DNA of 64,000 bases, taken from NCBI GenBank assembly GCA_964635715.1, contig CAZWNZ010000001.1, positions 248,122 to 312,121 on the forward strand, given 5' to 3'. Position 1 is the first letter of the stretch, and each line of letters opens with the position of its first letter. The stretch comes from an uncultured Gammaproteobacteria bacterium. GTDB taxonomy: Bacteria; Patescibacteriota; Microgenomatia; UBA8517. The translations under genes and the position numbers were made by a program. Below are positions 24,406-63,286 of the stretch, in pieces. The notes beneath the pieces are model-generated. The model did not search any database, was not told the DNA's origin, and saw nothing but the letters and a program-made list of their open reading frames with translations.

Positions 24406-24417
24406 TTTTTCCTCCTT

Positions 24418-25873: not shown

Positions 25874-25885
25874 GAAGGAGAAAAA

Positions 25886-26808: not shown

Positions 26809-26814
26809 GTCAAA

Positions 26815-27057: not shown

Positions 27058-27064
27058 TAGGTGA

Positions 27065-27137: not shown

Positions 27138-27170
27138 CAAAATTTTTGAGTAGTGGAATATACCGCCACG

Positions 27171-27213
27171 GGGCTTAAAGGTAACTAAGTAGGTTCGATT
27201 CCTACTAAGTCCG
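27171..27213 (+). ncRNA. tRNA-like minihelix (acceptor stem plus T arm only) with G3:U70
   Basis: gggctta-aaggtaactaa-gtagg-ttcgatt-cctac-taagtcc-g; no D or anticodon arm. Confidence 0.3.
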
Positions 27214-27706
27214 CATTAATTCTGTTAGCGCAGAATTCTAGAACGTTAAAATTTGAAGATTTAAGGTTTTTTTAAAATGTGTAGGTAAGTGATAGGGAAT
27301 TTTAGATGAAGAAGTTTTATATTTCTTTTATCTTTTACCCTTTATCTTTTACCTATTATTAGAAGAGGAAGGTCGCGTCCCAAACTCGAATTTATTCGAG
27401 TTGTGTGGGATCGCAAGTAAACAACGCAGACAGTGAATGCCTTGCTTTTCGTCTCCGAAGAAGGACGTACATAGCCACGAAAGTCGCCGGTTAGCTGCTA
27501 CGAAGCTTTGACCCGACGGTGTCCGAATGGGGAAACCCATCCCGCTTTGCGGGATATCTTGAGGCCAAAATGTTGACGCAAGTTAATATATAACTTTAAG
27601 TATGGAAACCACCTGAACTGAAACATCTAAGTAAGGTGAGGAATATAAATCAACGAGATTCCGCCAGTAGCGGCGAGCGAAAACGGAACAGTCTAAACCA
27701 TTGTGC

Positions 27707-27835
27707 ATAGCACAAGGAATGTCACACAAATAAATACCAATAAACCAATAAATACCAATTTACAATGGAAACATTTAGAATTGGGCATTGGTGCACATTG
27801 GTACTTATTTGAAATTTGGCGTTTCCTGCGCTGTG
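27707..27835 (+). other. 23S intervening sequence 1 (5' domain)
   Basis: The 22-nt block cacaaggaatgtcacacaaata is identical to the 16S insertion; shares taccaat repeats and ggaaac...gggcattggt. Confidence 0.6.
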
Positions 27836-28029
27836 CAGGATGGGGTTGTAGGACTCTAATGTGAGATCTCTATTTTAGTAGTAGAACAGTCTGGAATGGC
27901 TGATCAAAGAAAGTGAAAATCTTGTATACAAAACTAAAATAGGCTCTAGGAGTATCCTAAGTACCACGGAACACATATTCTGTGGGAATCCGGGGGAACC
28001 ATCCTCCAAGACTAAATAAGACGAAAGAG

Positions 28030-28066
<37 letters not shown>

Positions 28067-28656
28067 CTGAGTGAGACACTCAATGAAATAGAACCTGAAA
28101 CTGTTTGCGGTCAAACCGTGAGAGCTGGTCGTAAGACTGGTGATCGCGTGCCTATTGAAGAATGAGCCGGCGAGTTTTCAGTTACTTCTTATGTCTAACT
28201 CCAATTTGGAGGGAGGCGAAGGGAAACCAAGTGTGAATAGCGCGTTTGGAGTAACTGGAAGACCCGAAACTGGGTGAGCTAACCATGAGCAGGGTGAGCT
28301 CCGATGAAAATCGGAGGGAGGCCCGAACCCGTTGTCGTTGTAATGACATGGGATGACTTGTGGTTAGGGGCAATATACTTATCGAACCCAGAGATAGCTG
28401 GTTCTCCCCGAAAGGTCTATGGGGACCGTGGTCCGTCACGTTCTGCTGGTTGTAGAGCACTGGCTGGGTTGGAGAGCGCAAGCAATTCAATCTAATCAAA
28501 CTCCGAATACTAGTGTGAGCTATCGGACTAAAAAGCCGCATCGGGCTAAGCTGATGCGACGAAAGGGAAACAACCCTTGACTCTCAGTTAAGGCCTCTAA
28601 ATTACATCTAAGTTTGAAAGGAAGTTTTCTTTCTCAGACAGCCAGGAGGTTGGCTC

Positions 28657-28694
<38 letters not shown>

Positions 28695-28771
28695 TGGTCG
28701 ATTGAGAGGATGCGCCTAAGATTTATCGAGGATAAGATGTATGCCGAAGCTAGAGATATCCGTGCCTTGCA

Positions 28772-28874
28772 CAGGAATGATTAATAAATACCAATAAACC
28801 AATAAGTATCAATCTCCAATTAAAACTGGAATTGGGAATTTGGAATTGGATTATTTGTAATTTGTCATTCCCGT
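28772..28874 (+). other. 23S intervening sequence 2 (helix-45 site)
   Basis: Inserted between ccgtgccttg and agagcgcgggtgtggtaggggagcgttcc; aataaataccaataaaccaataa is identical to IVS 1. Confidence 0.6.
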
Positions 28875-30263
28875 GCAGAGCGCGGGTGTGGTAGGGGAGC
28901 GTTCCAATTGCGGTGAAGGTGAACCGGAAGGTTTGCTGGAGCGGTTGGGAGTGAGAATGTCGGCTTGAGTAGCGTACAATACTAGTGAGAATCTAGTACG
29001 TCGAATGTCCAAGGTTTCCACTGCAAGATTCGTTCACAGTGGGTTAATCGGTTCCTAAGGCGAGGCCAAATGGCGTAGTCGATGGACAATTGGTTAAAAT
29101 TCCAATATATGTGTTAAATCGAAAGATCCCGCAAGGGATGAGCTAGGGATTGACTGAGCAGGAGTTTTGAAGCTTTTTCGTGAAGTAGAGTGCAGAAATC
29201 GAAGTAGTTCTGACTGGAAAATCCGTCAGAATGTTTAATTAAGATGGTGCAAAGTTCTCCGCGAGGAGGGCGATTTCAAACGCTTCAGCTTACAAGAAAA
29301 GATTCGTAGCGAGAGTTAACATATGCCGTACCGCAAACCAACACAGGTGGACTGGGGGAGCACCCTAAGACGATCGAGAGACAAATCCTCAAGGAACTCG
29401 GCAAAAAAACTACCCGTAACTTAGGGAAATGGGTTGTCCAGCGCAAGCTGGATTGCAACTAAAGTTTATTGGTCGACTGTTTATCAAAAACACAGGCCCG
29501 TGCAAAAGCGAAAGCTGAAGTATACGGGCTGACGCTTGTCCAGTGCCGGTAAGTTAAGAGGAGGGGTGTTCTGAACTTGTTTCAGGATGCTCTGAATTTA
29601 AGCTCCGGTGAACGGCAGCAGTAACTATAACTGTTCTAAGGTAGCGAAGTTCCTTGCCAGGTAAGTTCTGGCCCGCATGAATAGCGTAACGAGCTAATAA
29701 CTGTCTTGAGGGTTTACTCGGCGAAATAGCGATGGCTGTGAAGACGCGGCCTACTTCCACATGGACAAAAAGACCCCGTGGAGCTTTACTGCAGGTAGAT
29801 ATTGCTTTCATATTTTTTGATTGTCTAGAATAGGTGGGAGCCGCAAGGCGATCTTGTAATACCACTCGTTGAGAAATGTGAGGCTAACTCAATTCCGATG
29901 GAAACTCGGAAGAGGAACGTGTTTGCCGGGCAGTTTTACTGGGGCGGTACCCTGCCAAATTGTAACGCAGGGACGCAAAGGTTGGCTTTCTACCGATGGA
30001 AACGGTAGTTTTAAGCGTAAAGGTTTAAGCCAGCTTGACTGCGAGGGAGATGTCCCGAGCAGGTACGAAAGTAGGTCTTAGTGATCCTCCGAAGCACAAT
30101 GGGTGTGCTCGGAGCTTAATGGATAAAAGCTACCCCGGGGATAACAGAGTAGTCGCGCCCGAGCGTCCATAGCGACGGCGCGGTTCGCTACCTCGATGTC
30201 GGCTCATCACATCCTGGCGCTGAAGAAGGTGCCAAGGGTCGGTCTGTTCGCCCGTTAAAGTGA

Positions 30264-30301
<38 letters not shown>

Positions 30302-30428
30302 ACTCTATCCTGTGGAAGCGTTGGAATCTTGAGGAGAGCTGGGGACAGTACGAGAGGACCTCCCTGGAGGAATCCCTGGTGTGCCGGTTATTGCGTCAGC
30401 AGTAACGCCGGGTAGCTATATTCCTAAC

Positions 30429-30464
<36 letters not shown>

Positions 30465-30600
30465 TCCAAGATTAGGATTCCATATTAAATCCCCCGTAGA
30501 AGACGGGGTTGATCGGCAGGCACTGGAAGATCTGTAAGGGTTTAAGGTAACCTGTACGAATAGATTGATTCTTGCGATCCCACACATGTGGGGCGCGACC

Positions 30601-30718
30601 TTCCTTTTCTACGAAATAGTACAGAGTACAGGAGTACATAGTACTTAGAAAAACAAAAAATCTAACGTCTTAGTCTCTGTACTTTTGTACTTTGTACTAT
30701 GTACTAGTTTCAAGGCAA
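30601..30718 (+). repeat. 23S-5S spacer with inverted arrays of the AGTACAN heptad
   Basis: agtacagagtacaggagtacatagtact on the plus strand and tgtacttttgtactttgtactatgtact in inverted orientation. Confidence 0.5.
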
Positions 30719-30840
30719 TGTTCTGGTGGTCAGTGCGAAGTGGCACCACCTGATCCCTTTCCGAACTCAGAAGTGAAACGCTTTAGCGCAGACGATAGTT
30801 TACGGGCAACTGTACGCGAAAATATGTCACCGCCAGAACA
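30719..30840 (+). rRNA. rrf: 5S rRNA
   Basis: gttctggtggt...ccgaactcagaagtgaaacg...cgccagaaca. Confidence 0.9.
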
Positions 30841-43803: not shown

Positions 43804-44142
43804 ATGGAAAAACTTAGAATCTATCAAACAGCTTTGGATTTAGTTTTGGAAATCTATAAGCTCATACAGCAAGATTCAAAACTTGCTAGAGATTGGTCGC
43901 TTTGCGATCAAATAAAGAGAGCATCTATTTCTGTGGTTGCCAATATCGCTGAAGGATATCTAAGATCCAAAAAACAATTCAAAAATTACTTACAAATAGC
44001 CTCAGGTTCAGCTAATGAAGTTGTAGCTCACTTGCAAGTGATAACAAAAGTTTATGGAAATAATACCGATAAATTACAAGAATCATACAAAGTTCTTGCA
44101 CGTCAAATAGGTGCATTCTCCAAGACTCTCGGCCAGAGCTAG
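43804..44142 (+). CDS. four-helix-bundle protein (TIGR02436, '23S rRNA intervening sequence protein')
   Basis: VANIAEGYLRSKKQFKNYLQIASGSANEV signature; flanked by repeat copies at 43768-43800 and 44138-44215. Confidence 0.8.
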   Translation: MEKLRIYQTALDLVLEIYKLIQQDSKLARDWSLCDQIKRASISVVANIAEGYLRSKKQFKNYLQIASGSANEVVAHLQVITKVYGNNTDKLQESYKVLARQIGAFSKTLGQS

Positions 44143-47400: not shown

Positions 47401-48150
47401 ATGGATCCTACATTTACTCAAAAAATCCAAACTCCCGTATCTCAAGAGAGTTGTTGTTGTTCAAATTTTACCTTTAAGAAAGTTTTGGCAATTCTTGGAT
47501 TTGTTTTTGTGGTTTTAGTTTTATGGCAGTGGATCAGTTCTCCTATGGTGGTAACAGTTACAGGGACAGGGGAGGTTTCAGTTCCTGCGACGAGTGCCAC
47601 TGTGACCACCACAATTTCAGTAAATTCCGATTCAGCCCAAAATGCGATTAACGCAATTAAAGACAAGTCGAATTCTATTAAAACCGTACTTATGAACAAT
47701 GGAGTTGCCGAATCGGACATTTCAGAATCCCAAATTACTTCCTATCCTGCAGGATTAGTTACAACAGGTGCAACAGGTTATCAGGCAGCAATACAAGTGG
47801 ACGCAAAAACAGATCATGTCTCAACTATTGATGGTCTAATTGCCAATCTATACTCGGCTGGAGCCACATTAGTTTCCCAACCGGTTTTAAGTGTTGAGAA
47901 CCAAGGCGAACTGGAACAACAGGCATCGGATGCTGCAATCAAAGATGCAAAGACTCAAATTTCAAAAATTTCCTGGAAAAATTTAAGATTTATTAGGAGA
48001 AAGGTGGCTCTTTATGAAGATGAAGGTGAAACAACATCGACGACCACTTCAAAGGCTGACGTTGTGACAGGCTCTCAAAATCAACTGGCTGTTCAGAATG
48101 GGGTATTTAAGATAACTAAAACTGTATCCGTCTCCTACAAACTGTGGTAG
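47401..48150 (+). CDS. SIMPL/DUF541 (YggE-like) domain protein
   Basis: TM anchor, then VTGTGEVSVPATSATVTTTISV...; family resemblance. Confidence 0.5.
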   Translation: MDPTFTQKIQTPVSQESCCCSNFTFKKVLAILGFVFVVLVLWQWISSPMVVTVTGTGEVSVPATSATVTTTISVNSDSAQNAINAIKDKSNSIKTVLMNNGVAESDISESQITSYPAGLVTTGATGYQAAIQVDAKTDHVSTIDGLIANLYSAGATLVSQPVLSVENQGELEQQASDAAIKDAKTQISKISWKNLRFIRRKVALYEDEGETTSTTTSKADVVTGSQNQLAVQNGVFKITKTVSVSYKLW

Positions 48151-48204
48151 ACAATTGTAGTGGCGGTAATTGTTTCCATTTTTGCATTTTCCCCTTGACG
48201 ATTA

Positions 48205-50151
48205 TTATTTACGTATTGTAGTTGGCGTGTAGTTATAAAAAGCTGGGAATTCATTATAAGTTGTTGGAATAGAATAGACATTAAATAGGGACTGATTTTG
48301 GTTTATTTCCTGAATCATAGTTTGTTGAATTTGTGGAAGTTGTTCAAATTGGGTTAGTTTATAAGAAACTAGTGACTCTCCTGATTGTAAGGTTGCTGTA
48401 ACCCTATTTGCGCCATCAACAGTATATATCTTTCCTCCATATTGAGTTATTCTGATTGGATCCAAAGTTCCACCCTCTTGTAATATTTGCTTTAATTGTG
48501 GAACTGTTTGCATATTGTAACCTGGTTCATGAGGGCTTAATAAGTTGATATCGATTTGTCCAGTTGAATTTAGTGAAAAAGTTGTTTTCTTTGTTGCAGT
48601 ACCTATTAAATTGCTTGTAGAATTTGTTAGCTGGATCATTGCCATAGGATCTCCTTGAATAGCTGCAACATATGCAACACAGGCATCAGAATATGGATTA
48701 TTAATACATGAGGCTGTTCCGACACCGACCCCTGCATATCCAACTACAGCACCTGTTATGGCAGCAGCAGTTTGTACACTTGCAGGAAGCGTGGTAAGGT
48801 ATGCCGTTCCGTACGAGTACGCCAACAGACCCAACTCTCCTAACGCTGGGCCTGCCAAAGCGGTAAGTATTGCAGTATCTCCAATAGCAACCGCCGTATT
48901 TAGATTTGTTTGGGTTGTGTCTATTGTGACAATCGGGTTGGCCTTGCAGGTTTTGCTTGTGTCAAAAATACTTCCACCTAAAGTTTGGCTTCCTGAGTAA
49001 CAATTACCTGATTCACATTCATTGTCGCTGCCGCAAGTTAACCCATTTGCCTTGAGTTTTATTGATCCACAGCTACAAAATCCGGACAAGCACGTTCCCG
49101 TATTTCCCGGTACCTGACTTGCGCAATTGGAGGCACATGTGATTGTTTCACATACATTTTGAGTTGTTGTACATGGGTAACCAGACGAGTGTCCGCATGC
49201 CCCAACATAAATATTATTAACACAAAGACACCCTGCATTTACTATTGGCACAGAAGTTGGTACAGGAGTAGGTGTCGGGCTGGGTGTCATGATTTTGCAA
49301 TCACTATCACTGGCACAATATGATGTAGGGCAAGTTTGAGAATATGGAACTGTTGTAGAAGTTGCTACACATGATACTCCGGAACAATTTCTCACAGTAC
49401 AATTCCTACTCGACGGTGTGGGAGTGGGGGGTGTCGGCCTGCGACAATAACAGTAAGAAAATGATCCGGACGCTGTACAATCTTTCTTTTCAAGCCCCTC
49501 ACAACAGTCTCCCATACCACTTGCAATAACGGAACCTTCTCCTATGCATGTTGTACTATCATCATCGTTACCGCCAGTTATGGGTGGATCTGTTGGTTGG
49601 GGATCGGAATTGCAGTCGGAATTATCTTCACAGTCATTTAAGTATGGATCACAATGACTGCTTTTTTTAACACAACTTCCTGACGAACATGTGTTACAAG
49701 GCAGAATGTCGTTGTCGCTATCATCATCTTCACTGTCGTCATCTGATGAATCGTCATTGGGTGGATCTGCTCCGCAATCTTGGTTGTCTGCGCACTGAGA
49801 CGATGGACAAGAACTGCCCCTTGCAACATATACGGTAGTAGCTATGCAGGAAACTCCACTACATTTTTTAATTGAGCAAGGTGTGGTGGAAGGGGACGCA
49901 CTGGGACTTGGAATTTCAACACACACTTTACAACCTCCGGATGTGGCACATCTGTATCCGGTGCCACAATCAGAATTAACCTCACATTCATTATCCAGAC
50001 AAATTGCTTTCTCTGCAAAATTTAGGCTGATATTTCTGTTGTTGGCAACGACCGTACCAACAATAGCAGTAATCAAAAGAAATCCAATGCCAATCAAACT
50101 CAAAGGATCAATAAATCCTCTTGAATATTTTGATTCATTTTTATCAGGCAT
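48205..50151 (-). CDS. signal-anchored Cys-rich surface protein with an acidic poly-Asp/Ser linker
   Basis: N-terminal TM; repeated CxxC/CxC modules; DDSSDDDSEDDDSDND tract; PTPTP linkers; ~230-aa C-terminal Cys-free domain. Confidence 0.5.
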   Translation of the reverse strand: MPDKNESKYSRGFIDPLSLIGIGFLLITAIVGTVVANNRNISLNFAEKAICLDNECEVNSDCGTGYRCATSGGCKVCVEIPSPSASPSTTPCSIKKCSGVSCIATTVYVARGSSCPSSQCADNQDCGADPPNDDSSDDDSEDDDSDNDILPCNTCSSGSCVKKSSHCDPYLNDCEDNSDCNSDPQPTDPPITGGNDDDSTTCIGEGSVIASGMGDCCEGLEKKDCTASGSFSYCYCRRPTPPTPTPSSRNCTVRNCSGVSCVATSTTVPYSQTCPTSYCASDSDCKIMTPSPTPTPVPTSVPIVNAGCLCVNNIYVGACGHSSGYPCTTTQNVCETITCASNCASQVPGNTGTCLSGFCSCGSIKLKANGLTCGSDNECESGNCYSGSQTLGGSIFDTSKTCKANPIVTIDTTQTNLNTAVAIGDTAILTALAGPALGELGLLAYSYGTAYLTTLPASVQTAAAITGAVVGYAGVGVGTASCINNPYSDACVAYVAAIQGDPMAMIQLTNSTSNLIGTATKKTTFSLNSTGQIDINLLSPHEPGYNMQTVPQLKQILQEGGTLDPIRITQYGGKIYTVDGANRVTATLQSGESLVSYKLTQFEQLPQIQQTMIQEINQNQSLFNVYSIPTTYNEFPAFYNYTPTTIRK

Positions 50152-51456: not shown

Positions 51457-51617
51457 TAGTGAGTGGACTCGCCGGGAATTGTGTGCACAATATCACACCC
51501 GAGCACTATCGATTCCCAAGAGGGCACGAACTTTAGTGAGTGGACTCGCCGGGAATTGTGTGCACAATATCACACCCGAGCACTATCGATTCCCAAGAGG
51601 GCACGAACTTTAGTGAG
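51457..51617. repeat. two tandem 77-bp direct repeats plus a third partial copy; each begins with the 3'-terminal 17 nt of tRNA-Ala(CGC) plus 7 nt of trailer
   Basis: Units at 51457-51533 and 51534-51610 are identical by eye; the third copy at 51611 runs into the tRNA. Confidence 0.85.
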
Positions 51618-51688
51618 TGGACTCGCCGGGAATTGAACCCGGAACTTATCAATGCGAATGATACGGTATACCGTTTGCCTACGAGCCC
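51618..51688 (-). tRNA. tRNA-Ala (anticodon CGC) with G3:U70; the D arm is atypical
   Basis: Reverse complement: GGGCTCG ... anticodon stem-loop TATCA-TTCGCAT-TGATA ... T arm CCGGG-TTCAATT-CCCGG ... CGAGTCC-A. Confidence 0.65.
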
Positions 51689-51897
51689 GAATCGAAACCT
51701 ATATTCTTTTGGGTATTGAACCAAATCTGGCTAGATTATATCATCTTACTTTTCCTTCTGTAAGAAGTTTTGAGCGTGCTAGGCCTCAAAGGGGATTGAC
51801 AGGGGGTGTAAAATGTGCCAAATATTTTATATATAGTATTAAGTATTTGTAAATACTTGTAAAAACAAAGCCATGATCCTTTGTAAAAACTGCCAAA

Positions 51898-53745
51898 ATG
51901 CCCAAAAATACATATACAGTTAAAGAGGTTGCCAATCTTCTGGAATTTTCTACAAATACAGTTTACAAGTATCTTGATGATGGCAGTATTAAGTCGGTTC
52001 GTTTTGGGAGTGAGGGCCGATTCAGGATTCCCAGGACAGAAGTCGAACGTCTTCTTCAAGAGAGAGGGAAAACTTTACCTGAAGATTCAACCATATCAAA
52101 AAACCAAAATTTACATGGAATAAGAGGAATCCCTAGTTTATTTGATTGGTTTGTTGCATTTTTATCTATTTCGATAGGGTTTTCAATTTTTATCTTTCCT
52201 GTTCCAAGCGCTGTTCGGGTGGTCTTTGATCTAAATAAGTTTGTCATTCCGCTTCAGGTGATTTTATTGCTTGGTGGTTTTCTCATCTTGGTCTTGGATA
52301 TGTTTAGGATGCATGACAGCCGCCTACGCAAATCTATAAATTTAATTGTTGGAATTGACTACTTGGTAACAGCTCTTGTGTTTGCTTTTGCGGACAATTT
52401 TCCCTTGACCGTCGGTTATTTGGCGGTTGCATTTATTGTTATATTGTCAGTTTTTATAAAAATGGGCCAATATACAAGATTTCTGCTTTTTATAAACCTA
52501 TTGCTTGTTTTTCTGGGGATAGGAGTTTTGGGTTGGCCTGATACGTTTTTTCTTGCCGGTGTAATCGGAGTAAATTCAAAAAACTTAATAATTTTCTTTT
52601 CGATATGGTCACTTTTGATGATATTTAATGTTTACATGACATATTTTGCAATCAGAAAAAATAAACACCTTGTTTGGTTTCTTGCATTTCCAACAGCTCT
52701 AACATCTCTTTTGTATGCAACGATTAGTTTTACACAAGGGCTTTGGGCTAAGGCGATTTATTGTGTTGTTTTGTCGTCTTTTGCCGTAATTTTCCCCTTT
52801 GCTGACGAATTTGAAGCATTTACTCTGAAGTCAAAAAAAGAGGTGGCTGCCAGTTTTGCATGGCTTCTTGGTCTTTTCCTGGTCGGATCACTCATGCTTT
52901 ACTATATCTTTCGTTCATTTCAAAGTTATGGCTTCTTAGAACTGACTAATAGAGTCGATACCGCTAGTGATATTGTCACAAATTTCATGGATGGAAATAT
53001 CGCAAAGATCTCTGCATTTGCTGTCGACGAGGAGTTGATCGGTGCTATAGAAAACTATTCCGGGGACAATATCAATTTGGCAAATAATAAATTGAAACAA
53101 CTATACCAAGCGTCCAATTGGTCGATTCGAAGAGTGGTGTTAGTTGATAAGAACGGGATAATTCTCGATACATATCCTCTGAACCCATCAAGTCAGGGTG
53201 TAGATATTAGTAAACGTGACTATTTTGAAAGCGTTAAGGTAGGTGGTCAAACTTTCGTGTCGGGGATCGAGCAACCAAGCTCATCAGGACTCAGCCCTGT
53301 GGTTTTGGTTTCAGTTCCCATAATCGATTCTAGCGGAGATTTTTTGGGAGTTGTTATGGGAGATACCGATTTGGATGAACTTACAAGAAGAGTTAATCAA
53401 ATTAAATTTGGACAAAGTGGAAGTTATTTATTAGTAGATCAATTGGGTAAATATATCATTCCACCAACTAAGGATCAGATAATGGCAAAAGCCTCTGCCG
53501 GAAGTCCCGCATCGATGGTAGTTTTGGGTGAAAAAGGTACTTTGCAAGGAGAAGATTCTTTGGGAGAACTTTCTTTAATTGCCTATGTAAAAGTTAATAA
53601 ATACAGTTGGGGTATAGTGGCTCAACAACCGGTTGATGAGGCATTCAATCCATATAGCAAAACTGTCTTTATCACGTTTCTGATATATGTAACAGCAGGG
53701 GTAGGAAGTTTAATTCTTGTATTTTCGTCACAGAGAAAGCAATAA
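51898..53745 (+). CDS. fusion protein: excisionase-family HTH, then a polytopic membrane domain, then an extracytoplasmic Cache-like sensor domain and a final TM
   Basis: N-terminal VKEVANLLEFSTNTVYKYLDDGSIKSVRFGSEGRFRIPRTEVERLL (HTH_17 / excisionase-like); about 10 TM; the C-terminal ~230 aa look like dCache; last TM VFITFLIYVTAGVGSLILVF. Confidence 0.5.
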   Translation: MPKNTYTVKEVANLLEFSTNTVYKYLDDGSIKSVRFGSEGRFRIPRTEVERLLQERGKTLPEDSTISKNQNLHGIRGIPSLFDWFVAFLSISIGFSIFIFPVPSAVRVVFDLNKFVIPLQVILLLGGFLILVLDMFRMHDSRLRKSINLIVGIDYLVTALVFAFADNFPLTVGYLAVAFIVILSVFIKMGQYTRFLLFINLLLVFLGIGVLGWPDTFFLAGVIGVNSKNLIIFFSIWSLLMIFNVYMTYFAIRKNKHLVWFLAFPTALTSLLYATISFTQGLWAKAIYCVVLSSFAVIFPFADEFEAFTLKSKKEVAASFAWLLGLFLVGSLMLYYIFRSFQSYGFLELTNRVDTASDIVTNFMDGNIAKISAFAVDEELIGAIENYSGDNINLANNKLKQLYQASNWSIRRVVLVDKNGIILDTYPLNPSSQGVDISKRDYFESVKVGGQTFVSGIEQPSSSGLSPVVLVSVPIIDSSGDFLGVVMGDTDLDELTRRVNQIKFGQSGSYLLVDQLGKYIIPPTKDQIMAKASAGSPASMVVLGEKGTLQGEDSLGELSLIAYVKVNKYSWGIVAQQPVDEAFNPYSKTVFITFLIYVTAGVGSLILVFSSQRKQ

Positions 53746-53785: not shown

Positions 53786-56700
53786 ATGGCGGGAAAAAAG
53801 GAAAAATATCAAGCGGGAATAACACCGCTTTTAGTTTTAATAACAGTGGCAACATCTTCAATCCTGGTGTTTACCGGTGGATTAACGTTTAATAATTTGA
53901 AAAACAAGGGAATATTAAATTTTACGGATCCAACTCTTAGAAATATTATTAGCCAACAAGCTGATTATTTGGATTCCTCCAAGCTTAACAAGTCACGCAT
54001 TGAAGGAGGCCTTGTTGGAACAGTACTTTTGCCGGACGGATCATACTCGGCTTATAAGATTCTGGATGGGAACATAGAAAGTAAAGGATCGAAGTTTACC
54101 GGTGAGGTAAGGATTTCATTTTTTTCCGATGATGTAGGGCTTAGTAATTACACAGACGGAAACATTAACCCATTTTATTTAATGGATGGGACTAAAACGG
54201 TGGGGGTAATTGTAGACAGGATGCTTGCGAATTTGAACGATGGGGATACAAGTCATGCAATTAAAATATTAAAAGGAACCGTTAAAAACAATTCTCTTAC
54301 AGGAGAATTTGTAGCCCAGACGTTGGATACAGGATATTATATTGGAGGTTTTGTTGAGGATGATGGTCGAATAACGAGTGCTACAGTACTCACCGGTGCT
54401 CCGAGGCTTACGGAAGCTCAGATTTCGATAGCAGAAAATGCTCTTTCAGTTCTGCCTTTATTTAAAAATGTTACCGCTGACCTTGCCACACCTAGCGATG
54501 CCAACATTTTAGGAGAGTCAACCATTGCTACATCAAAATCTGATTTAGGGAAGCTAAATAAGCCGGTTTTTAATAAAAAAACAGGTACATGGACTTTCGT
54601 TGGGTCAGGAGATGGGGGAGCGGTTTCAACCTCTGCAATGCAGGGAGTTGTGAATTATATTCAAAATATCGCCGAAACCATTTCGACATCGCCTTCTGCA
54701 GGACAGGTTGTACAGCAAATTGTCCAGAATGTTGTTCAGGGTATAAGTGAAATAAAAAGTGCAAATTCAAAACTAACTGTATCGACAGAAAACAATGTCT
54801 CAACTCTTTCACTTGATCTATCCGGGATTACAGCATCGGGGGTAAATGACGGATCAGTTAATCCCTCAGGACTCGTTCATTCAAATACCCCCATAGACGG
54901 CCAGTGCTTGACCTACAACAGTTCTACAGGAGGTTTTACATGGAGTTCTTGCGGTTCGGGTGGAGGAGGAACAATAACCGATGTAATAGCCGGTGATGGT
55001 CTGGTGGGCGGAGGAACAACCGGAAGTATTGACTTGGCGATTAATCCGCAAACAGGCGGGGGATTGGAAGCGGCCACGTCAGGAATTTCTTTAAACAGAG
55101 AATGTGCAGATGGAGAAATTCTGAAATGGACAGAAAGCACCTCCTCTTGGGATTGTGCTGCAGACAACGGAGGAGTGGGGGGGGGAGTTTCAACTCTCCA
55201 AGTTGACGACTCGACCATTGTTTCGTCAGCAACTGTGATTGATTTTTTGGGTTCAGATTTTGATTTAACAAATTCGCCGACTGGTGAGGGTAATTTGTCA
55301 ATTGACTACACTAACTCCAAAATAGTCAGAAGTGATCAAAATCAATCAATAAACGGCACCTGGACATTCTCTACGGCTCCTGTTATCTCAACAATTTCAA
55401 ATACTGGAGTCCTGACGCTTCCGACTTCAACAGATACTCTTGTAGGCAGAAATACCAGCGACATATTGACCAATAAAACAATCACAGCGGGATCAAATAC
55501 TATTTCGGGTCTTACAGCAAGTAATCTAACCGCCGGTGATTTTTCGACTAAGATTAATTCCGGTACTTATTCAATTAATATTTCGGGCAATGCCGGAACT
55601 GTTACAAATGGTATTTATACAACAGGAAGTTATTCCAACCCTTCCTGGATCACAAGTCTTTCTCCTGCAAAAGTTCTTCCCGACCAAACAGGAAACAATG
55701 GAAAGGTCCTTAGTACAAATGGTTCGGCTTTGTCCTGGATCACCGATTCTTCAGGGGTTGCCTGGGGAGCAATCACAGGGACTTTGTCAGACCAGACAGA
55801 TTTAAATACAGCCCTTTCAGGAAAACTTTCAACAACTGGATCTGCCGCCAATTTGACCAATTTCCCGACATTCAATCAAAACACAACTGGAACTGCAAGT
55901 AATATCACAGGAGTACTTGGTGCCATATCATTTCCGGCTCTTGATGGAGATGTGACAACTATACAGGGAGATCTGACAACAACAATTGCCAGTGGGGCAG
56001 TAACTTTAGGTAAGATGTCCAGTTTGGCGGCAAATTCAATAATCGGTAATAATACGGGAAGCTCGGCAACACCGGTTGCATTAACAACCACACAAGTTAA
56101 GTCTTTGTTATCAATTGCAAATACTGATGTGTCAGGATTGGGTACAATGTCTACCCAAAATGCAAATAACATATCCATTACGGGCGGAAGCATCTCTGGG
56201 CTTAGCTCAGTTGGGGCGACTACGTTCACGGGTGCATTGACGGGTAATGCAAGTAGTGCCACAACTGCCACTACCGCAACCACAGCCAACGCTCTCGCCA
56301 ATTCAGATTCTGCGGGTCAATCCGCAATCACAGCCATTAATTCGGCTACTGCGGGCACCCTTAACACAGCACGTCTTAACTCGTCTGTTACAACCCAGGG
56401 AAATACATTTAACGGAGTTTCCCAACTGGTTAAACTTGACACATCAGGATATCTTCCGACTATTAATGGATCATTATTAACAGGACTTGCCAAATCTCAA
56501 GTTGGCCTTTCTTTAGTTGAAAATACAGCCCTTTCTACTTGGGCGGGGACTACTAATGTAAATACAATTGCGGATAAAACAGTCACTTTAGCCAGAATGG
56601 CTGATATGGCAACTGCGTCATTCCTCGGAAGAAATACTGCAGGAACAGGATCACCTGAAGTTCTATCAATTTCGACTGCTAAATCAATACTATCCCTTTC

Positions 56701-59700
56701 TACGGGTGATATTTCAGGTCTTGGAACGATGGCCACTCAAAACTCAAACAATGTTTCCATTTCCGGAGGATCTTTATCGGGTCTAACCTCAGTTGCTTCC
56801 ACCACTTTTACAGGTGCATTAACCGGAAATGCCTCAACAGTTACAAACGGAGTCTACACCAATGGTTCCTATTCAGACCCTTCCTGGATTACAGCAATAT
56901 CTCCAACTAAAGTTTTGCCAGATCAAACAGGACAAAATGGAAAAGTACTTTCAACTAACGGTTCAACTTTATCCTGGATTACCAACTCATCAGGTGTGGC
57001 TTGGGGAGCAATCACAGGGACTTTGTCAGACCAGACAGATTTAAATACAGCCCTTTCAGGAAAACTTTCAACAACTGGATCTGCCGCCAATTTGACCAAT
57101 TTCCCGACATTCAATCAAAACACAACTGGAACCGCCGCAGGACTTTCATCAGTGTTGGTTTCAACCATGGGTGGATCAGGAGTGAATAATGCTGGAACTC
57201 TAACCTGGGGAGCAGGTGGAACTTTAGGAACAGCGGCCTATACCGCCAGTACCGACTATGCAACTTCAGCCCAGGGAACATTGGCAACAAATGCATTACC
57301 ATCGGCGTCATTCACTGATGCGGCGGTTACGGGAAAACTTTTGACAGGTTACATTAGTGGTGCAGGTTCAGTTTCCGCCACCGACACAATTCTTCAAGCC
57401 ATTCAGAAACTGAACGGAAATGATGCCACAAATGCTAACTTAACGGGAGTTGTTACCTCAATCGGAAATGCAACATCCATTGCCGATGGTGCAATTACTA
57501 ATGCAATGCTTGCAAACGGTGCTGTTGCCAATCTTTCAGGCACGAACACAGGCGACAATGCGGTAAATTCCAATTACGCTTCCGATTATCGTGCAGCTAA
57601 TTTTGTTGCGGGGACAAATTATCTAACTCCTACAGGATCAGCCGCCAGCCTAACCAATTTTCCAATTCTCAACCAAGATACAACGGGGAATGCGGGAACG
57701 GTTACAAACGGGGTATATACAAGCGGCAGTTACTCAGATCCAAGCTGGATTACTTCGCTTTCACCGACAAAAGTCCTTCCTGATCAAACAGGACAAAATG
57801 GAAAAGTACTTTCAACTAACGGTTCAACTTTATCCTGGATTACCAACTCATCAGGTGTGGCTTGGGGAGCAATCACAGGGACTTTGTCAGACCAGACAGA
57901 TTTAAATACAGCTTTATCAGGCAAATTAGGTACCGGACTTACATCTGCCAACGTCTTTGTAGGTAACGGATCGGGTGTTGCGACAGGAGTTTCCATGAGT
58001 GGAGATGTAACAATTGATAATACCGGGGCTACGACTATTGGAAATTCCAAAGTTACACTTGGAAAAATTGCAAGTATTGCAAATAATACCATTCTGGGAA
58101 ATAGATCGGGTAGTGCGGCAGCACCCTCCGAACTTTCTGCGTCGGATGTTAAAAGTATTCTATCGTTGTCAACCTCTGATATCTCAGGTCTGGGAAGTAT
58201 GGCAACTCAGAACGCAAATAGCGTTTCTATATCAGGTGGATCTTTATCAGGTCTTACTTCAGTTGCTGCAACTACATTCACAGGTGCTCTGACGGGCAAT
58301 GCATCTACTGTTACAGGTCTTTCCGTCACAAGCGGCAAGACCTTAACTGTCCAAAAATCAATGACACTTACATCAGCCGATGACACAGGTGTCTACACAT
58401 TCCCAACAGGAACAGCCACACTTCTTTCAACAACAGGATCAGCAGCCAGCCTTACAGACTTCCCAACATTTAATCAAAATACAACAGGTACTGCTGCAAA
58501 TATCACGGGAGTTTTGGGTGCAAGTTCTTTCCCAGCCATGTCAGGCGATGTTACAAACACACAAGGAAGTTTAACTACGGCCATTACTTCCGGGGCGGTC
58601 ACTTTAGGCAAAATGGCTAATTTAGCAGCCAACTCCATCATAGGCAACAATACCGGGAGTCCTGCAACACCTGTTGCTCTTACCAATACTCAAGTTAAGA
58701 CCCTTCTTTCTATCGCCAATACCGATGTTTCAGGCCTTGGAACAATGTCTACCCAAAACTCCAACAATGTCTCAATCACAGGCGGCTCATTATCTGGTCT
58801 TACATCGGTTTCTGCAACAACATTTACCGGTGATTTAACAGGTAATGCCGGAACTGTTACAAATGGAGTTTATACAAATGGTTCGTATTCAGATCCTTCT
58901 TGGATCACAGCTCTTTCCCCAACAAAAGTCCTTCCTGATCAAACAGGACAAAACGGAAAAGTATTGGGTACTGACGGATCCAATCTTTCTTGGGTAACCA
59001 ACTCATCAGGTGTGGCCTGGGGAGCAATCACAGGAACATTATCCGATCAAACAGACTTAAATACCGCATTGGGGCTAAAAGCAAATACTTCCAGTCTTGG
59101 GACAATTTCTTCTCAAAATGCTAATGCAGTTAACGTCACAGGGGGAACAATCGCCGGACTGACAGGATTTTCAATCAGATCATCAGGTTCAGGTGCTTTT
59201 GATTTAACGATAAACAATACCGAAAACTTGACGGCAGGTCGGGCTCTTACAATTACAACAGGAGACGCTGCAAGAACTTTGACATTGACGGGCGACTCAA
59301 GTATTTCAGGCACGAACACAGGTGATAATGCGGTAAATTCCAATTACGCTTCCGATTATCGTGCAGCTAATTTTGTTGCAGGAACGGATTATTTAGCACC
59401 GAGTGGAAGCGCTGCCAGTCTCACTAATTTCCCGACATTCAATCAAAACACAACTGGAACCGCAAGTAATATCACAGGAGTACTTGGTGCCACATCATTC
59501 CCGGCTCTTGATGGAGATGTGACAACTATACAGGGAGATCTGACAACAACAATTGCCAATGGGGCAGTTACCTTAGGCAAAATGGCTAACCTTGCCGCAA
59601 ACTCAATAATAGGAAATAACACGGGAGACCCGGCAACACCAATCGCTCTGACTGCTACTCAGGTAAAATCTCTTCTTTCCATTGCAAATACTGATATTTC

Positions 59701-62700
59701 CGGATTGGGGACCATGTCTACCCAAAATTCCAACAATGTTTCAATTTCTGGAGGTTCATTATCTGGTCTTACTTCCGTTTCGGCTACAACATTTACAGGG
59801 GCACTAACTGGAAATGCCAGTTCAGCAACTACTGCCACAACTGCGACAACCGCAAACGCTTTGGCAAACACCGATTCCGCAGGACAATCTGCTATTACAG
59901 CAATCAATTCAGCTACAAGCGGAACGATTAACGCTTCAAGAATTGCATCTCTCCCATATATTTCAACAACCTTAAATTCCGGAAATGTATTAGTAGGGAA
60001 TGGAAGCAATGTTGCAACGGGTGTATCAATGAGCGGGGATGTAACGATTGACAACACCGGAGCTACAAGTATAGGAAACGGCAAAGTAACTTTAGGAAAG
60101 ATTGCCAATATTGCAAATAGTACAATTCTTGGAAATAATTCAGGGAGTGCAGGAGCACCAATTGCATTAACAGCCTCACAAGTTAAATCGGTTCTTGGAA
60201 TATCAACAGGTGATGTATCAGGTCTTGGAACCATGGCTGCACAAAATTCCAACAGTGTTTCGATTTCTGGTGGATCGATCAGTGGTGTGACTGTTGGAGG
60301 AACCGCTACGGGGTTATCAATTTCAGGATCGTCAAACACTTTATCAAATATCGGCAACTCCAGCCTTACCAATTCTTCAGTCACAATTAACACCAGCGGG
60401 ATCCTGTCGGGCGGCGGAAGTTTATCACTTGGGGGAACTCTCAATCTTTCTGCAACCGAGGCAGATACTCTTTCTGCAGTTACAAACAGAGGAGCGTCAA
60501 CCTCTGATGGTATTACTCTTTCTTCGGCCTCTCCGTTAACTCTTTCTGATTCTGCTCCGGTCTTAACTTTGGGCACAGGTGATGCTGAAGGTGTACTAAC
60601 CATCAAAGATTCTAATGGCACACCACATACACTTTTAACTTTAACTGACATAGGTACAACTGGTAATTTGTCGGTTACAGGCACACTTAATGGAGCAACT
60701 ATCACGGGTGGTTCTTTATCGGCAACCGCAGTTAATGGAGTTACAACAGGAAATATTGTTTTGACAAGTGGTTCGTATTCCAATCCGAGCTGGATTTCAG
60801 GACTTACAGCCAGTCACCTAACGGCAGGAGATTTTTCTTCTAAAATTAATTCCGGAACTTATTCTATTGATATATCAGGAAATGCATCAACTGCAACAAC
60901 TGCAACAAGCGCAACAAGTGCAACTTCTGCCACCAGTGCAGACTCAGTTACAGGACTATCAGTTACGGCAGGCAAAACTCTTACCGTACAAAAATCTATG
61001 ACATTTACGTCCGCTGACGATACTGGGGTTTACACTCTTCCGACGGGCACAAAAACGCTTGTATCGACAGATGTTTCAACTCTTTCCTCCCTGACATCAA
61101 TCGGAACCTTAACTGATCTTACGGTGACAAATGCAATTACCGGTTCGGTTACGGGCAATGCCGGAACTGTTACAAATGGTATTTATACAACAGGAAGTTA
61201 TTCCAACCCTTCCTGGATTACAAGTCTTTCTCCTGCAAAAGTCCTTCCTGATCAAACAGGACAAAACGGAAAAGTATTGGGTACTGACGGATCCAATCTT
61301 TCCTGGGTAACCAATTCTTCAGGTGTTGCCTGGGGAGCGATAACGGGAACTCTTTCTGATCAAAGTGATCTAAATACAGCTCTTTCAGGAAAGCTTAGTA
61401 CTTCTTTAACTTCAGCCAATATCTTTGTTGGTAATGGGTCTGGAGTGGCAACAGGTGTTGCCATGAGTGGGGATATCACAATTGACAACACAGGAGCGAC
61501 AACAATTGGTAATTCCAAAATTACTCTGGGGAAGATTGCCAACATCGCAGATGGAACCATATTAGGAAATAACTCAGGAAGTAGTGGAGCTCCAATTGCT
61601 CTTACCGCGTCTCAAGTTAAATCGCTTCTTTCTATCGCCAACACCGACGTATCAGGCTTGGGGACTATGTCCACTCAAAATGCTAACAATGTCTCAATTA
61701 CAGGTGGAAGCATGTCAGGATTAACGTCTGTATCAGCAACTACATTTACAGGGGCACTAACTGGAAATGCCAGTTCAGCAACTACTGCCACAACTGCAAC
61801 AACTGCGACAACTGCAAACGCTTTGGCAAACACCGATTCCGCAGGACAGAGTGCTATTACTGCTATAAATAGTGCAACAACCGGTACTATTAATGCGGCC
61901 AGAATTGCATCTCTTCCTTATATCTCAACATCCTTGGCTTCGGCCAATATAATCGTTGGTAATGGATCAGGAGTTGCCACTGGTGTTGCCATGAGTGGAG
62001 ATATAACTATCGACAATACCGGAGCAACAACAATTGGAAACAGTAAAGTCACCCTTGGAAAGATTGCAGATATGGCAACAGCCTCATTTATTGGAAGAAA
62101 TACTACAGGAACAGGTGCTCCTGAGGTTCTTTCAGCCTCAACTGCCAAATCCATCCTTGCCATTGCCAACACAGATGTATCAGGTTTAGGGACCATGTCT
62201 ACCCAAAATGCCAATTCGGTGTCAATTTCTGGAGGATCAATCGGCGGAGTGACAATAGGAGGGACTGCATCAGGTCTTACCCTCGCCGCGGGAAGCAATA
62301 CTTTAAGTGGAATAACAGCATCCAATATGACAGCGGGGGATTTTTCGGGCGTAGTTAATACAGGAAGCTATTCCATTAATGTATCAGGTAGCGCCGGATC
62401 AGTTACGGGACTTTCTGTTACAGGAGGTAAAACTCTAACTGTTCAAAAATCTATGACATTTACGTCTGCTGACGATACTGGGGTTTACACTCTTCCGACG
62501 GGCACAAAAACACTTGTATCAACAGATGTTTCAACACTTTCTTCTTTAACTTCGGTCGGAACATTATCAACTCTGGGTGTCTCAGGTGCAATAAGCGGTG
62601 CGACTTCTACAAATACTATTAATGGAATAATTATTAATTCGGGAGCCGTCTCGGGTGTTACAACACTGGGAGCATCCAGTACTGTGACTATCGGAAGCGG

Positions 62701-63286
62701 CGGAAATACTTTTACATTTAACCCCGCAAGCGGTCCAACCTATGCAGGTGCAGCCAGACCTGACAGACGGGAAGAATTGATTCCCGAATTCCCCGGAGCT
62801 GTTTTAACCGGTAGTGGAACAGGTACTATGACATCTGATTTCTGTGCAGCATCAGCGGGTGTTGGTGGACTTACCGCAACCAATACTACGGTTTGTAACA
62901 CCTCAGGAGACACACACAATTATTATAATTGGACAACTTCTCAAGGGACTGCTCAAACATATTCAATCTATTTGAAATGGAGAATCCCGGATAATTTCTC
63001 GGCATGGGATGCCAGTAATTCAGTTCAAGCGTATGCTAAAAGGAGTGACGCCACAAATGGGCATGTAAATATAAAAGTTTACGATACTGCAAATGCTCTA
63101 AATAATTCCGGCGGAACTGAAGTTGCAGGAACTGCAAATACCTGGGTGCAAAATGGAATTAATATATCCGGCGGTACTTGGACAGCCGGTAGCTACATGA
63201 CTATCCAGATAGATATTACGGCAGCTGCAAGTGGTGGAGTGACGGATGTGGGGGAAATCAATCTTAATTATTTCACTACGAACTAG
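53786..63286 (+). CDS. giant (~3170 aa) modular repeat surface protein: N-terminal signal anchor, shuffled repeat modules, C-terminal jelly-roll/lectin-like domain
   Basis: Single ORF; recurring modules NPSWITxLSPxKVLPDQTGQNGKVL, SSGVAWGAITGTLSDQTDLNTAL, QNANNVSI(T/S)GGS(L/I)SGLTSV and VQKSMTFTSADDTGVYTLPTGT; several copies are nucleotide-identical. Confidence 0.7.
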   Translation: MAGKKEKYQAGITPLLVLITVATSSILVFTGGLTFNNLKNKGILNFTDPTLRNIISQQADYLDSSKLNKSRIEGGLVGTVLLPDGSYSAYKILDGNIESKGSKFTGEVRISFFSDDVGLSNYTDGNINPFYLMDGTKTVGVIVDRMLANLNDGDTSHAIKILKGTVKNNSLTGEFVAQTLDTGYYIGGFVEDDGRITSATVLTGAPRLTEAQISIAENALSVLPLFKNVTADLATPSDANILGESTIATSKSDLGKLNKPVFNKKTGTWTFVGSGDGGAVSTSAMQGVVNYIQNIAETISTSPSAGQVVQQIVQNVVQGISEIKSANSKLTVSTENNVSTLSLDLSGITASGVNDGSVNPSGLVHSNTPIDGQCLTYNSSTGGFTWSSCGSGGGGTITDVIAGDGLVGGGTTGSIDLAINPQTGGGLEAATSGISLNRECADGEILKWTESTSSWDCAADNGGVGGGVSTLQVDDSTIVSSATVIDFLGSDFDLTNSPTGEGNLSIDYTNSKIVRSDQNQSINGTWTFSTAPVISTISNTGVLTLPTSTDTLVGRNTSDILTNKTITAGSNTISGLTASNLTAGDFSTKINSGTYSINISGNAGTVTNGIYTTGSYSNPSWITSLSPAKVLPDQTGNNGKVLSTNGSALSWITDSSGVAWGAITGTLSDQTDLNTALSGKLSTTGSAANLTNFPTFNQNTTGTASNITGVLGAISFPALDGDVTTIQGDLTTTIASGAVTLGKMSSLAANSIIGNNTGSSATPVALTTTQVKSLLSIANTDVSGLGTMSTQNANNISITGGSISGLSSVGATTFTGALTGNASSATTATTATTANALANSDSAGQSAITAINSATAGTLNTARLNSSVTTQGNTFNGVSQLVKLDTSGYLPTINGSLLTGLAKSQVGLSLVENTALSTWAGTTNVNTIADKTVTLARMADMATASFLGRNTAGTGSPEVLSISTAKSILSLSTGDISGLGTMATQNSNNVSISGGSLSGLTSVASTTFTGALTGNASTVTNGVYTNGSYSDPSWITAISPTKVLPDQTGQNGKVLSTNGSTLSWITNSSGVAWGAITGTLSDQTDLNTALSGKLSTTGSAANLTNFPTFNQNTTGTAAGLSSVLVSTMGGSGVNNAGTLTWGAGGTLGTAAYTASTDYATSAQGTLATNALPSASFTDAAVTGKLLTGYISGAGSVSATDTILQAIQKLNGNDATNANLTGVVTSIGNATSIADGAITNAMLANGAVANLSGTNTGDNAVNSNYASDYRAANFVAGTNYLTPTGSAASLTNFPILNQDTTGNAGTVTNGVYTSGSYSDPSWITSLSPTKVLPDQTGQNGKVLSTNGSTLSWITNSSGVAWGAITGTLSDQTDLNTALSGKLGTGLTSANVFVGNGSGVATGVSMSGDVTIDNTGATTIGNSKVTLGKIASIANNTILGNRSGSAAAPSELSASDVKSILSLSTSDISGLGSMATQNANSVSISGGSLSGLTSVAATTFTGALTGNASTVTGLSVTSGKTLTVQKSMTLTSADDTGVYTFPTGTATLLSTTGSAASLTDFPTFNQNTTGTAANITGVLGASSFPAMSGDVTNTQGSLTTAITSGAVTLGKMANLAANSIIGNNTGSPATPVALTNTQVKTLLSIANTDVSGLGTMSTQNSNNVSITGGSLSGLTSVSATTFTGDLTGNAGTVTNGVYTNGSYSDPSWITALSPTKVLPDQTGQNGKVLGTDGSNLSWVTNSSGVAWGAITGTLSDQTDLNTALGLKANTSSLGTISSQNANAVNVTGGTIAGLTGFSIRSSGSGAFDLTINNTENLTAGRALTITTGDAARTLTLTGDSSISGTNTGDNAVNSNYASDYRAANFVAGTDYLAPSGSAASLTNFPTFNQNTTGTASNITGVLGATSFPALDGDVTTIQGDLTTTIANGAVTLGKMANLAANSIIGNNTGDPATPIALTATQVKSLLSIANTDISGLGTMSTQNSNNVSISGGSLSGLTSVSATTFTGALTGNASSATTATTATTANALANTDSAGQSAITAINSATSGTINASRIASLPYISTTLNSGNVLVGNGSNVATGVSMSGDVTIDNTGATSIGNGKVTLGKIANIANSTILGNNSGSAGAPIALTASQVKSVLGISTGDVSGLGTMAAQNSNSVSISGGSISGVTVGGTATGLSISGSSNTLSNIGNSSLTNSSVTINTSGILSGGGSLSLGGTLNLSATEADTLSAVTNRGASTSDGITLSSASPLTLSDSAPVLTLGTGDAEGVLTIKDSNGTPHTLLTLTDIGTTGNLSVTGTLNGATITGGSLSATAVNGVTTGNIVLTSGSYSNPSWISGLTASHLTAGDFSSKINSGTYSIDISGNASTATTATSATSATSATSADSVTGLSVTAGKTLTVQKSMTFTSADDTGVYTLPTGTKTLVSTDVSTLSSLTSIGTLTDLTVTNAITGSVTGNAGTVTNGIYTTGSYSNPSWITSLSPAKVLPDQTGQNGKVLGTDGSNLSWVTNSSGVAWGAITGTLSDQSDLNTALSGKLSTSLTSANIFVGNGSGVATGVAMSGDITIDNTGATTIGNSKITLGKIANIADGTILGNNSGSSGAPIALTASQVKSLLSIANTDVSGLGTMSTQNANNVSITGGSMSGLTSVSATTFTGALTGNASSATTATTATTATTANALANTDSAGQSAITAINSATTGTINAARIASLPYISTSLASANIIVGNGSGVATGVAMSGDITIDNTGATTIGNSKVTLGKIADMATASFIGRNTTGTGAPEVLSASTAKSILAIANTDVSGLGTMSTQNANSVSISGGSIGGVTIGGTASGLTLAAGSNTLSGITASNMTAGDFSGVVNTGSYSINVSGSAGSVTGLSVTGGKTLTVQKSMTFTSADDTGVYTLPTGTKTLVSTDVSTLSSLTSVGTLSTLGVSGAISGATSTNTINGIIINSGAVSGVTTLGASSTVTIGSGGNTFTFNPASGPTYAGAARPDRREELIPEFPGAVLTGSGTGTMTSDFCAASAGVGGLTATNTTVCNTSGDTHNYYNWTTSQGTAQTYSIYLKWRIPDNFSAWDASNSVQAYAKRSDATNGHVNIKVYDTANALNNSGGTEVAGTANTWVQNGINISGGTWTAGSYMTIQIDITAAASGGVTDVGEINLNYFTTN

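Follow-up and report, generated by a model that had tools for sequence, protein, structure and literature searches.

The window analysed here is a 64,000-nt stretch of contig CAZWNZ010000001.1 (assembly GCA_964635715.1), and its subject of interest is a gene at 51898-53745 for a 615-residue membrane protein. We find that this protein is probably a transmembrane one-component transcription regulator, specific to Patescibacteria of the Microgenomates type, that controls both its own gene and the adjacent gene for a giant surface protein. A first-pass annotation, made from the sequence of the window, had proposed a membrane-tethered one-component regulator whose DNA-binding domain is of the type used by recombination directionality factors (RDFs). 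The domains, the topology, more than 60 relatives and a set of helically phased repeats found throughout the family all support that proposal. The features on which the argument draws are listed below, with protein positions in amino acids (aa).

51796-51825, plus strand: probable promoter as read from the sequence, with TTGACA at 51796-51801, an 18-nt spacer and then AAATAT
51806-15, plus strand: weaker GTGTAAAATG copy of the repeat, within the promoter spacer
51844-51891, plus strand: operator-like array of three direct repeats, with cores TTGTAAATAC (51847-56), TTGTAAAAAC (51857-66) and TTGTAAAAAC (51881-90)
51898-53745, plus strand: regulator gene, an open reading frame (ORF) of 615 aa (HTH_17, nine transmembrane helices, dCache_1, one transmembrane helix); an identical protein is known (P0001)
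51907-52065, plus strand: winged helix-turn-helix (HTH), excisionase/MerR-like, cytoplasmic (aa 4-56; HTH_17 and TIGR01764 above cut-offs)
52066-52137, plus strand: linker, disordered and variable in length (aa 57-80; low model confidence, low identity)
52138-52911, plus strand: nine-helix membrane module (aa 81-338)
52912-53631, plus strand: stalk helix and extracytoplasmic double Cache sensor domain, dCache_1 (aa 339-578)
53632-53730, plus strand: tenth transmembrane helix, then a short basic cytoplasmic tail (aa 579-611; from hydropathy, the AlphaFold2 model and counts of Lys and Arg)
53786-63286, plus strand: giant N-terminally membrane-anchored surface protein of 3189 aa, with its ATG at 53786 (the mechanical ORF begins at TTG 53717)

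Both end domains are recognized well above the family thresholds. The first 50 or so residues had been assigned to the excisionase-type HTH_17 fold, and the assignment holds: HTH_17 (PF12728) matches aa 6-56 with 43.5 bits against a Pfam cut-off of 27, and the NCBIfam model TIGR01764 (‘excise’, for the excisionase-family DNA-binding domain) matches aa 5-53 with 43.6 bits against a cut-off of 28.8. The BldC family model NF033787 does not reach its cut-off (16.2 versus 77 bits). The extracytoplasmic domain with Cache-like features is confirmed as dCache_1 (PF02743), which matches aa 353-575 with 87.8 bits against a Pfam cut-off of 45. Beyond the sequence match, the domain has the double PAS-like fold, the long N-terminal stalk helix and the flanking transmembrane (TM) segments of a dCache_1 sensor, and the residues conserved in it across the family are R412, Y426, R440-D-Y-F, G484, D514 and W571. 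One source labels a relative (P0029) a methyl-accepting chemotaxis protein; we reject this label, since neither MCPsignal nor HAMP domains are matched in the 615-aa protein and the chain ends after TM10, with four residues only beyond it.

The membrane topology was examined with hydropathy, with the charges of the loops and with an AlphaFold2 model built from an alignment of 26 sequences (mean predicted local distance difference test score, pLDDT, of 83.6). Hydropathy and the model concur in placing nine TM helices before the Cache domain and a tenth after it. The polytopic module and the final TM helix of the first-pass annotation are thus retained, and the number of helices before the Cache domain is nine rather than about ten. 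TM1 to TM9 lie at aa 81-99, 113-135, 142-164, 168-186, 191-212, 227-253, 256-279, 283-~302 and 316-~338; TM9 runs on as the stalk helix into the dCache domain, whose Cache fold proper occupies aa 378-578 in the model, and the tenth helix follows directly. Upstream of the module, the model puts the winged HTH at aa 4-55; the linker has a pLDDT below 50 at aa 62-76, and its length ranges from ~20 to ~100 aa among relatives (alignment A1). In the 26 relatives the mean number of Lys plus Arg per loop is 1.9-3.5 for loops predicted to be cytoplasmic and 0.1-0.9 for those predicted to be outside. Because these counts, in the 615-aa protein and the 26 relatives, obey the positive-inside rule, the HTH is placed inside the cell and the Cache domain outside.

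The architecture is widespread within one group of bacteria. A word-indexed search returns the identical protein together with 60 relatives that are full-length (607-704 aa). Each of these has HTH_17 and dCache_1, with identities down to 23%. A scan of genomes gives 64 loci, of which 57 are loci of regulator family genes. Every record with an informative label belongs to the Microgenomates group of Patescibacteria (Woese-, Gottesman-, Ames-, Collier- and Roizmanbacteria). When a profile of the nine-helix module alone was searched against 1.84 billion representative proteins (clusters at 50% identity, E<=1e-3), it matched only 251, nearly all of them 600-700 aa long with the module at about aa 80-370; judged by these matches, the module occurs almost only within the HTH_17 / nine-helix / dCache_1 / TM architecture. 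A Foldseek search for structural relatives of the module gave none at E<=0.001, and in a sequence search of the PDB the sole match outside the Cache domain is the mycobacteriophage excisionase Xis Gp37 (4j2n). At their sources the relatives bear annotations that are either unspecific or mistaken (‘cache domain-containing protein’, ‘excisionase family DNA binding protein’, ‘methyl-accepting chemotaxis...’).

By far the best-conserved domain of the family is the HTH, with a mean pairwise identity of 0.66 as compared with 0.25 for TM1-9, 0.30 for the Cache domain and 0.10 for the linker. Twelve of its positions are invariant (L15, S18, T19, N20, Y23, I31, R35, G37, G40, R43, I44 and E48), and the recognition-helix region, LGFSTN[TS][VI]Y, is nearly so.

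The operator-like ttgtaaaaac repeats that had been suggested upstream of the gene are real. The pattern TTGTAAAWAC occurs three times in the window, every copy within 51847-51890, where 0.83 occurrences would be expected for the whole window; scored with a position weight matrix (PWM), the three repeats of the array reach 14.4, 17.6 and 11.2 bits and form the only strong cluster in the 64 kb. Across the family, a TTGACA box is present in 54 of the 57 upstream regions and is followed by two to five direct copies of AACTTGTAAAAAC. An unbiased count of 8-mers finds ACTTGTAA in 43/57 upstream regions versus 0.56 expected, and a PWM scan of 1.05 Mb gives a site density per kb per strand of 12.7 in the 57 stretches upstream of the family genes and ~0.17 elsewhere. 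An array of at least two copies is found in 50/57 loci and, when proteins are clustered at 40% identity, in 23 of the 25 clusters; away from the neighbourhoods of family genes, arrays are nearly absent across ~1 Mb of flanking sequence.

Start-to-start spacings between repeats are 10 bp (41 cases), 22 bp (19 cases) and about 32 and 42 bp, which are whole helical turns, and nearly all sites have the direct orientation. In 41 loci the first copy begins 30-59 nt past TTGACA, at or just after the -10 element or transcription start. The consensus is the same in both major clades of the HTH, and the G of TTGT has a frequency of 1.00. We also considered operator variants specific to each clade and paired with HTH variants (STNTVYKY versus STNSIYTF), and saw no difference in consensus.

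The same motif accompanies the genes of a second, unrelated architecture, a Microgenomates family. Its proteins are short (153-223 aa) and have the same HTH signature, then a Pro-rich linker and, at the C terminus, two TM helices that end in LLTYQYGG. Its members (L060:534-995, L061:9989-10462, L062:1290-1829, L063:6042-6557 and L064:9989-10537) have TTGTAAAAAC-type repeats in front of their genes and a conserved set of small membrane-protein genes behind them; the 64-kb window contains no copy. Because this architecture shares only the HTH with the 615-aa protein and yet has the same motif, the HTH is the common denominator of the motif-bearing loci.

The gene had been placed between a tRNA and the gene of a giant surface protein, and this is where it lies: a tRNA-Ala gene is found at 51617-51688, and the giant ORF comes directly after the regulator. 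In all of the loci where this could be tested (52/52), a large protein with an N-terminal TM anchor is encoded immediately downstream. These proteins range from ~320 to >3300 aa (complete ORFs only). The first 420 aa of all 52 form one family connected by BLAST, within which the 3189-aa protein of the window matches 37 directly, and the remainder is variable and rich in repeats. The two genes abut in the window's clade; in the window, 38-41 nt separate the stop of the first from the start of the second, and no terminator-like site intervenes. Twenty loci have a longer gap (median 137 nt); there a hairpin comes first and then, directly before the giant gene, a motif array in inverted orientation. 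The giant gene is a probable co-transcribed target of the regulator. A reading of the repeats at the level of RNA is judged unlikely, since the oppositely oriented arrays before the giant gene would yield a different RNA sequence; Rfam gives nothing at the repeat region.

For the 3189-aa protein itself, there is no Pfam match in the first or last 600 aa. The Gottesmanbacteria counterparts have collagen triple-helix repeats in place of the repeats seen in the window, and a candidate conserved neighbour, ‘cl1’, proved to come from translating the collagen-like G-X-Y repeats of the downstream giant genes in the wrong frame. About 20 Third Party Annotation records of metagenome-assembled genomes titled ‘uncultured Gammaproteobacteria/Pseudomonadales bacterium’ (L004, L007, L010, L017-L019 and others) carry this gene pair, which is specific to the candidate phyla radiation (CPR). 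Their gene neighbourhoods are the same as those of the CPR loci, and the titles seem to be mistaken. L001, the closest relative, bears the label Gracilibacteria; the ORFs of the window are open under translation table 11, without in-frame TGA.

Further short elements surround the array. CTGCC is found 5-10 nt before the start codon in 27/57 family genes (47%) versus 4% of other ORFs, the copy in the window being at 51890-51894, and a Shine-Dalgarno-like sequence in only 16/57. The idea that CTGCC is a variant Shine-Dalgarno sequence was rejected on the 3' end of the window's 16S rRNA (19958-19966), which has the canonical CCTCC and to which CTGCC is not complementary. On the minus strand there are promoter-like sites at 51735-51764 and 51824-51863; about 40 nt before the 5' end of the tRNA-Ala gene lies CTTACA-18-TATAAT with an upstream TG, probably the tRNA promoter, and the operator repeats in reverse complement resemble TTTACA -35 boxes.

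The model that we propose is as follows. The extracytoplasmic dCache domain, between TM9 and TM10, would bind an external ligand or a surface cue, and the signal would travel via TM9/TM10 and the ten-helix bundle to the N-terminal cytoplasmic Xis/BldC-like winged HTH on its flexible linker. HTHs of several protomers would bind the AACTTGTAAAAAC direct repeats head-to-tail on one face of the DNA, and the bound array, at or just past the transcription start of the regulator's own promoter, would bring about autoregulation. The giant surface-protein gene would be controlled as well, by co-transcription in the window's clade and by its own inverted array in other clades. We infer that the HTH binds the repeats and that the Cache ligand modulates this binding; as to the sign of regulation, repression is suggested because the array sits at or after the -10. 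The 615-aa protein would most likely be a dedicated sensor-regulator of the adjacent surface protein.

Several points weigh against the model. It is by co-occurrence that the HTH and the motif are linked. The upstream regions that the PWM scores are also those on which it was trained (a circularity that the 8-mer count and the exact-pattern search escape), kinship of the loci inflates the raw motif counts, and the -10 of the window promoter is weak enough that a consensus promoter scan did not list it. A simple repressor with a single mode does not explain the inverted arrays before the giant gene. Nor does the model account for the eight extra TM helices, a classical Cache sensor needing only two, and in the Cache domain no ligand-binding motif was identified, only the family-conserved residues given above.

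Several alternatives can be set beside the regulator model. In the first, which we regard as unlikely, the protein has a mainly structural job as a partner in locus tethering and assembly: the HTH would hold the operon at the membrane, which would allow the anchored 3189-aa protein to be produced by transertion, the membrane module and the Cache domain would interact with the membrane-proximal N-domain of that protein, and ligand-controlled transcription would be secondary or absent. Such a role would fit the strict pairing of the genes (52/52), the near confinement of the nine-helix module to this architecture, without sensor or transporter relatives, and the presence in many loci of arrays on both sides of the regulator gene. 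A membrane-bound regulator that drives transertion is reported for the Vibrio type III secretion system 2 in PMC9977878. However, the dCache fold is a canonical small-molecule sensor, and a position of the array at or after the promoter -10 is what one typically sees in transcriptional control. Structural tethering is compatible with all of the data and overlaps the regulator model rather than excluding it.

We likewise give only a small chance to a contact or surface-state sensor that couples a giant adhesin-like protein physically to its own gene. Here the Cache domain and the nine-helix module would respond to the state of the conserved, membrane-proximal N-domain of the giant protein, or else to a ligand derived from the host, and HTH multimers on the phased repeats would hold the operon at the membrane, with transertion and feedback control as the outcome. 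If true, the giant surface proteins of episymbiotic CPR bacteria would have a dedicated ‘sense, tether and express’ device, built on a membrane module without known relatives.

In a further alternative, the N-terminal HTH would bind a protein, for instance one of the cytoskeleton or of envelope synthesis. Another factor would then read the AACTTGTAAAAAC arrays, or these would act through intrinsic A-tract curvature. The precedent is RodZ, in which a cytoplasmic XRE-type HTH binds MreB and is followed by a TM helix and a periplasmic domain. Some neighbours are related to the envelope (a LysM/M23 peptidase in the window's clade, GT4 glycosyltransferases in Gottesmanbacteria-type loci), and phased A-tracts can themselves bend DNA. 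However, the motif accompanies the HTH in two different architectures, there are almost no arrays outside the immediate gene neighbourhoods in ~1 Mb, and domains of the HTH_17/Xis/BldC type are well established as binding DNA at direct repeats. Because the G in the TTGT core is invariant (frequency 1.00 in both clades), base-specific recognition is indicated rather than curvature alone. We therefore consider a protein-binding HTH distinctly improbable.

Another alternative is that the protein is an RDF, or a remnant of a mobile element at tRNA-Ala, whose HTH acts on the att-like repeats there. The features concerned are these.

51617-51688, minus strand: tRNA-Ala(cgc)
51457-51635: threefold occurrence of the tRNA 3' end, with two identical 77-nt tandem units downstream of the tRNA

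This threefold 3' end and the TIGR01764 match are what speak for an RDF, and the first-pass annotation had placed the gene next to the att-like repeats. The connection that this implies is not borne out. No integrase or recombinase is encoded within 10 kb on either side of the gene (41.9-63.3 kb of the window). The tRNA has the gene on its 5' side and the repeats on its 3' side, and the repeats beside the gene differ in sequence from those of the tRNA. Adjacency to tRNA-Ala is conserved chromosomal synteny, inherited vertically in the closest clade (L001-L004 and L048, with the order Rho, LysM/M23 peptidase, tRNA-Ala, regulator); other members of the family have no tRNA nearby. A 615-aa protein with ten TM helices also differs from the excisionase/RDF functional class, that is, small stand-alone proteins that occur with an integrase in a mobile element and act on att arm sites. 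This alternative is effectively refuted, and we assign it almost no probability. The artefactual fusion of two genes by a sequencing or assembly error, for which nothing speaks beyond the unusual architecture, is refuted by the same domain order in >100 independent sequences, among them 61 full-length ones from independent assemblies, by the 57 genomic loci and by a second, independent contig that encodes the identical protein; the ORF is a real one.

Returning to the regulator model, we can compare the 615-aa protein with known systems. ToxR, CadC and TcpP are likewise single polypeptides in which a cytoplasmic DNA-binding domain at the N terminus is joined to a membrane anchor and to a sensor outside the cytoplasm, and action on DNA from the membrane is what is predicted here. 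They differ in having an OmpR-type winged HTH, a single TM helix and periplasmic domains other than Cache, whereas the 615-aa protein has a Xis/MerR-like HTH_17, ten TM helices and a dCache domain between TM9 and TM10. BcrR has an N-terminal XRE-type HTH and a polytopic membrane part that is itself the sensor, without a Cache domain. BcrR and RodZ resemble the 615-aa protein in the fusion of an N-terminal cytoplasmic HTH to membrane segments; unlike it, both have XRE-type HTHs and lack Cache domains, and the HTH of RodZ binds MreB and not DNA.

Transmembrane transcription regulators (TTRs) are defined by a DNA-binding domain plus at least one TM region (PMC10269533), and the 615-aa protein is predicted to have both in one chain. 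In the census of that class, HTH_17 occurs in 151/50,302 TTRs (0.30%), Patescibacteria are unmentioned, and dCache_1 is mostly paired with C-terminal AraC-type HTHs (PMC10269533). These ‘dCache_1,HTH_18’ regulators share with our protein the presence of a dCache_1 sensor and an HTH in one membrane protein. They are arranged as TM-Cache-TM with a C-terminal AraC HTH and two TM helices, whereas here the HTH is N-terminal, belongs to another family and is nine helices away from the Cache domain.

For the predicted mode of DNA binding, BldC and the excisionases (Xis, TorI, RdfS) are the relevant comparison, with a DNA-binding domain of the same fold family; direct-repeat arrays are the targets predicted here. 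BldC binds direct repeats on one helical face as head-to-tail cooperative multimers, with 9-bp AATTNNNNC units (PMC5859096), and Xis-like winged HTH proteins oligomerise on DNA (PMC11963761). In contrast to the 615-aa protein, BldC and the excisionases are soluble proteins of 50-70 aa without a sensor. The repeat unit here, of 10-11 bp, has another sequence than that of BldC, and the resemblance is confined to the predicted binding mode; as compared with the excisionases, there is no recombinase partner within 10 kb. A search of the literature found nothing specific on this architecture, on its operator or on regulators of giant CPR proteins.

CPR bacteria, or Patescibacteria, are ultra-small and have tiny genomes with few recognisable regulators, and the giant proteins on their surface are believed to serve in attachment to host cells. 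To our knowledge, there are almost no experimentally defined regulons in the CPR, and nothing has been known of the control of giant surface proteins. The family described here offers a rare testable triplet of regulator, operator and target for these bacteria, that is, a family of sensor-regulators, a predicted AACTTGTAAAAAC operator and a predicted target in the giant gene. The class of protein is unsurprising in itself; what is gained, besides the triplet, is a link to the enigmatic giant surface proteins. Within the TTRs, the class is extended in two ways, by a DNA-binding domain of the Xis/BldC type and by a polytopic module that is specific to the family and nearly exclusive to this architecture; the order from N-terminal HTH to C-terminal Cache is also unusual, and it raises the question of how a signal would pass from a Cache domain near the C-terminal end through ten helices to the HTH at the other end.

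Several observations concern the neighbourhood of the regulator gene. Each of the 77-nt units beside tRNA-Ala opens with 25 nt that repeat the tRNA 3' end together with its trailer, and in two loci of other genomes, with a different tRNA sequence (L003, 5203-5302, and L004, 9681-9777), there is one extra copy of the locus's own tRNA 3' end, with a spacing of 76 nt. The unit is the size of a tRNA yet is not called by ARAGORN or Rfam, and there is nothing unusual in how it folds (z -1.2); it may represent a tandem tRNA copy that has decayed, or a recurrent att scar. In the window, unlike in the syntenic block of L002-L004, two additional genes separate Rho from the M23 peptidase (47401-50151).

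47401-48150: SIMPL/DUF541 protein
48205-50151, minus strand: 648-aa protein rich in cysteine and in Pro/Thr, with no Pfam match

In the Gottesmanbacteria-type loci (L012-L057), a protein of ~317 aa is encoded divergently upstream of the regulator in 32 cases (for example L033:8740-9693). It has no Pfam match; what looks like a degenerate Fic domain (HAMIAGDFGRVAR) is followed in it by a winged helix at the C terminus. Two to four tandem genes for GT4 glycosyltransferases precede this Fic-like gene, and further motif arrays are found at its 3' end and before some of the GT4 genes.

Elsewhere in the window, the rRNA operon (18374-30838) is unusual, with ~5.2 kb between the 16S gene (18374-19969) and tRNA-Ile (25147). 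The 23S match covers 3171 nt versus 2925 nt for the model, which implies insertions. A ‘23S rRNA-intervening sequence protein’ (PF05635) is encoded at 43804-44142, a long way from the 23S gene.

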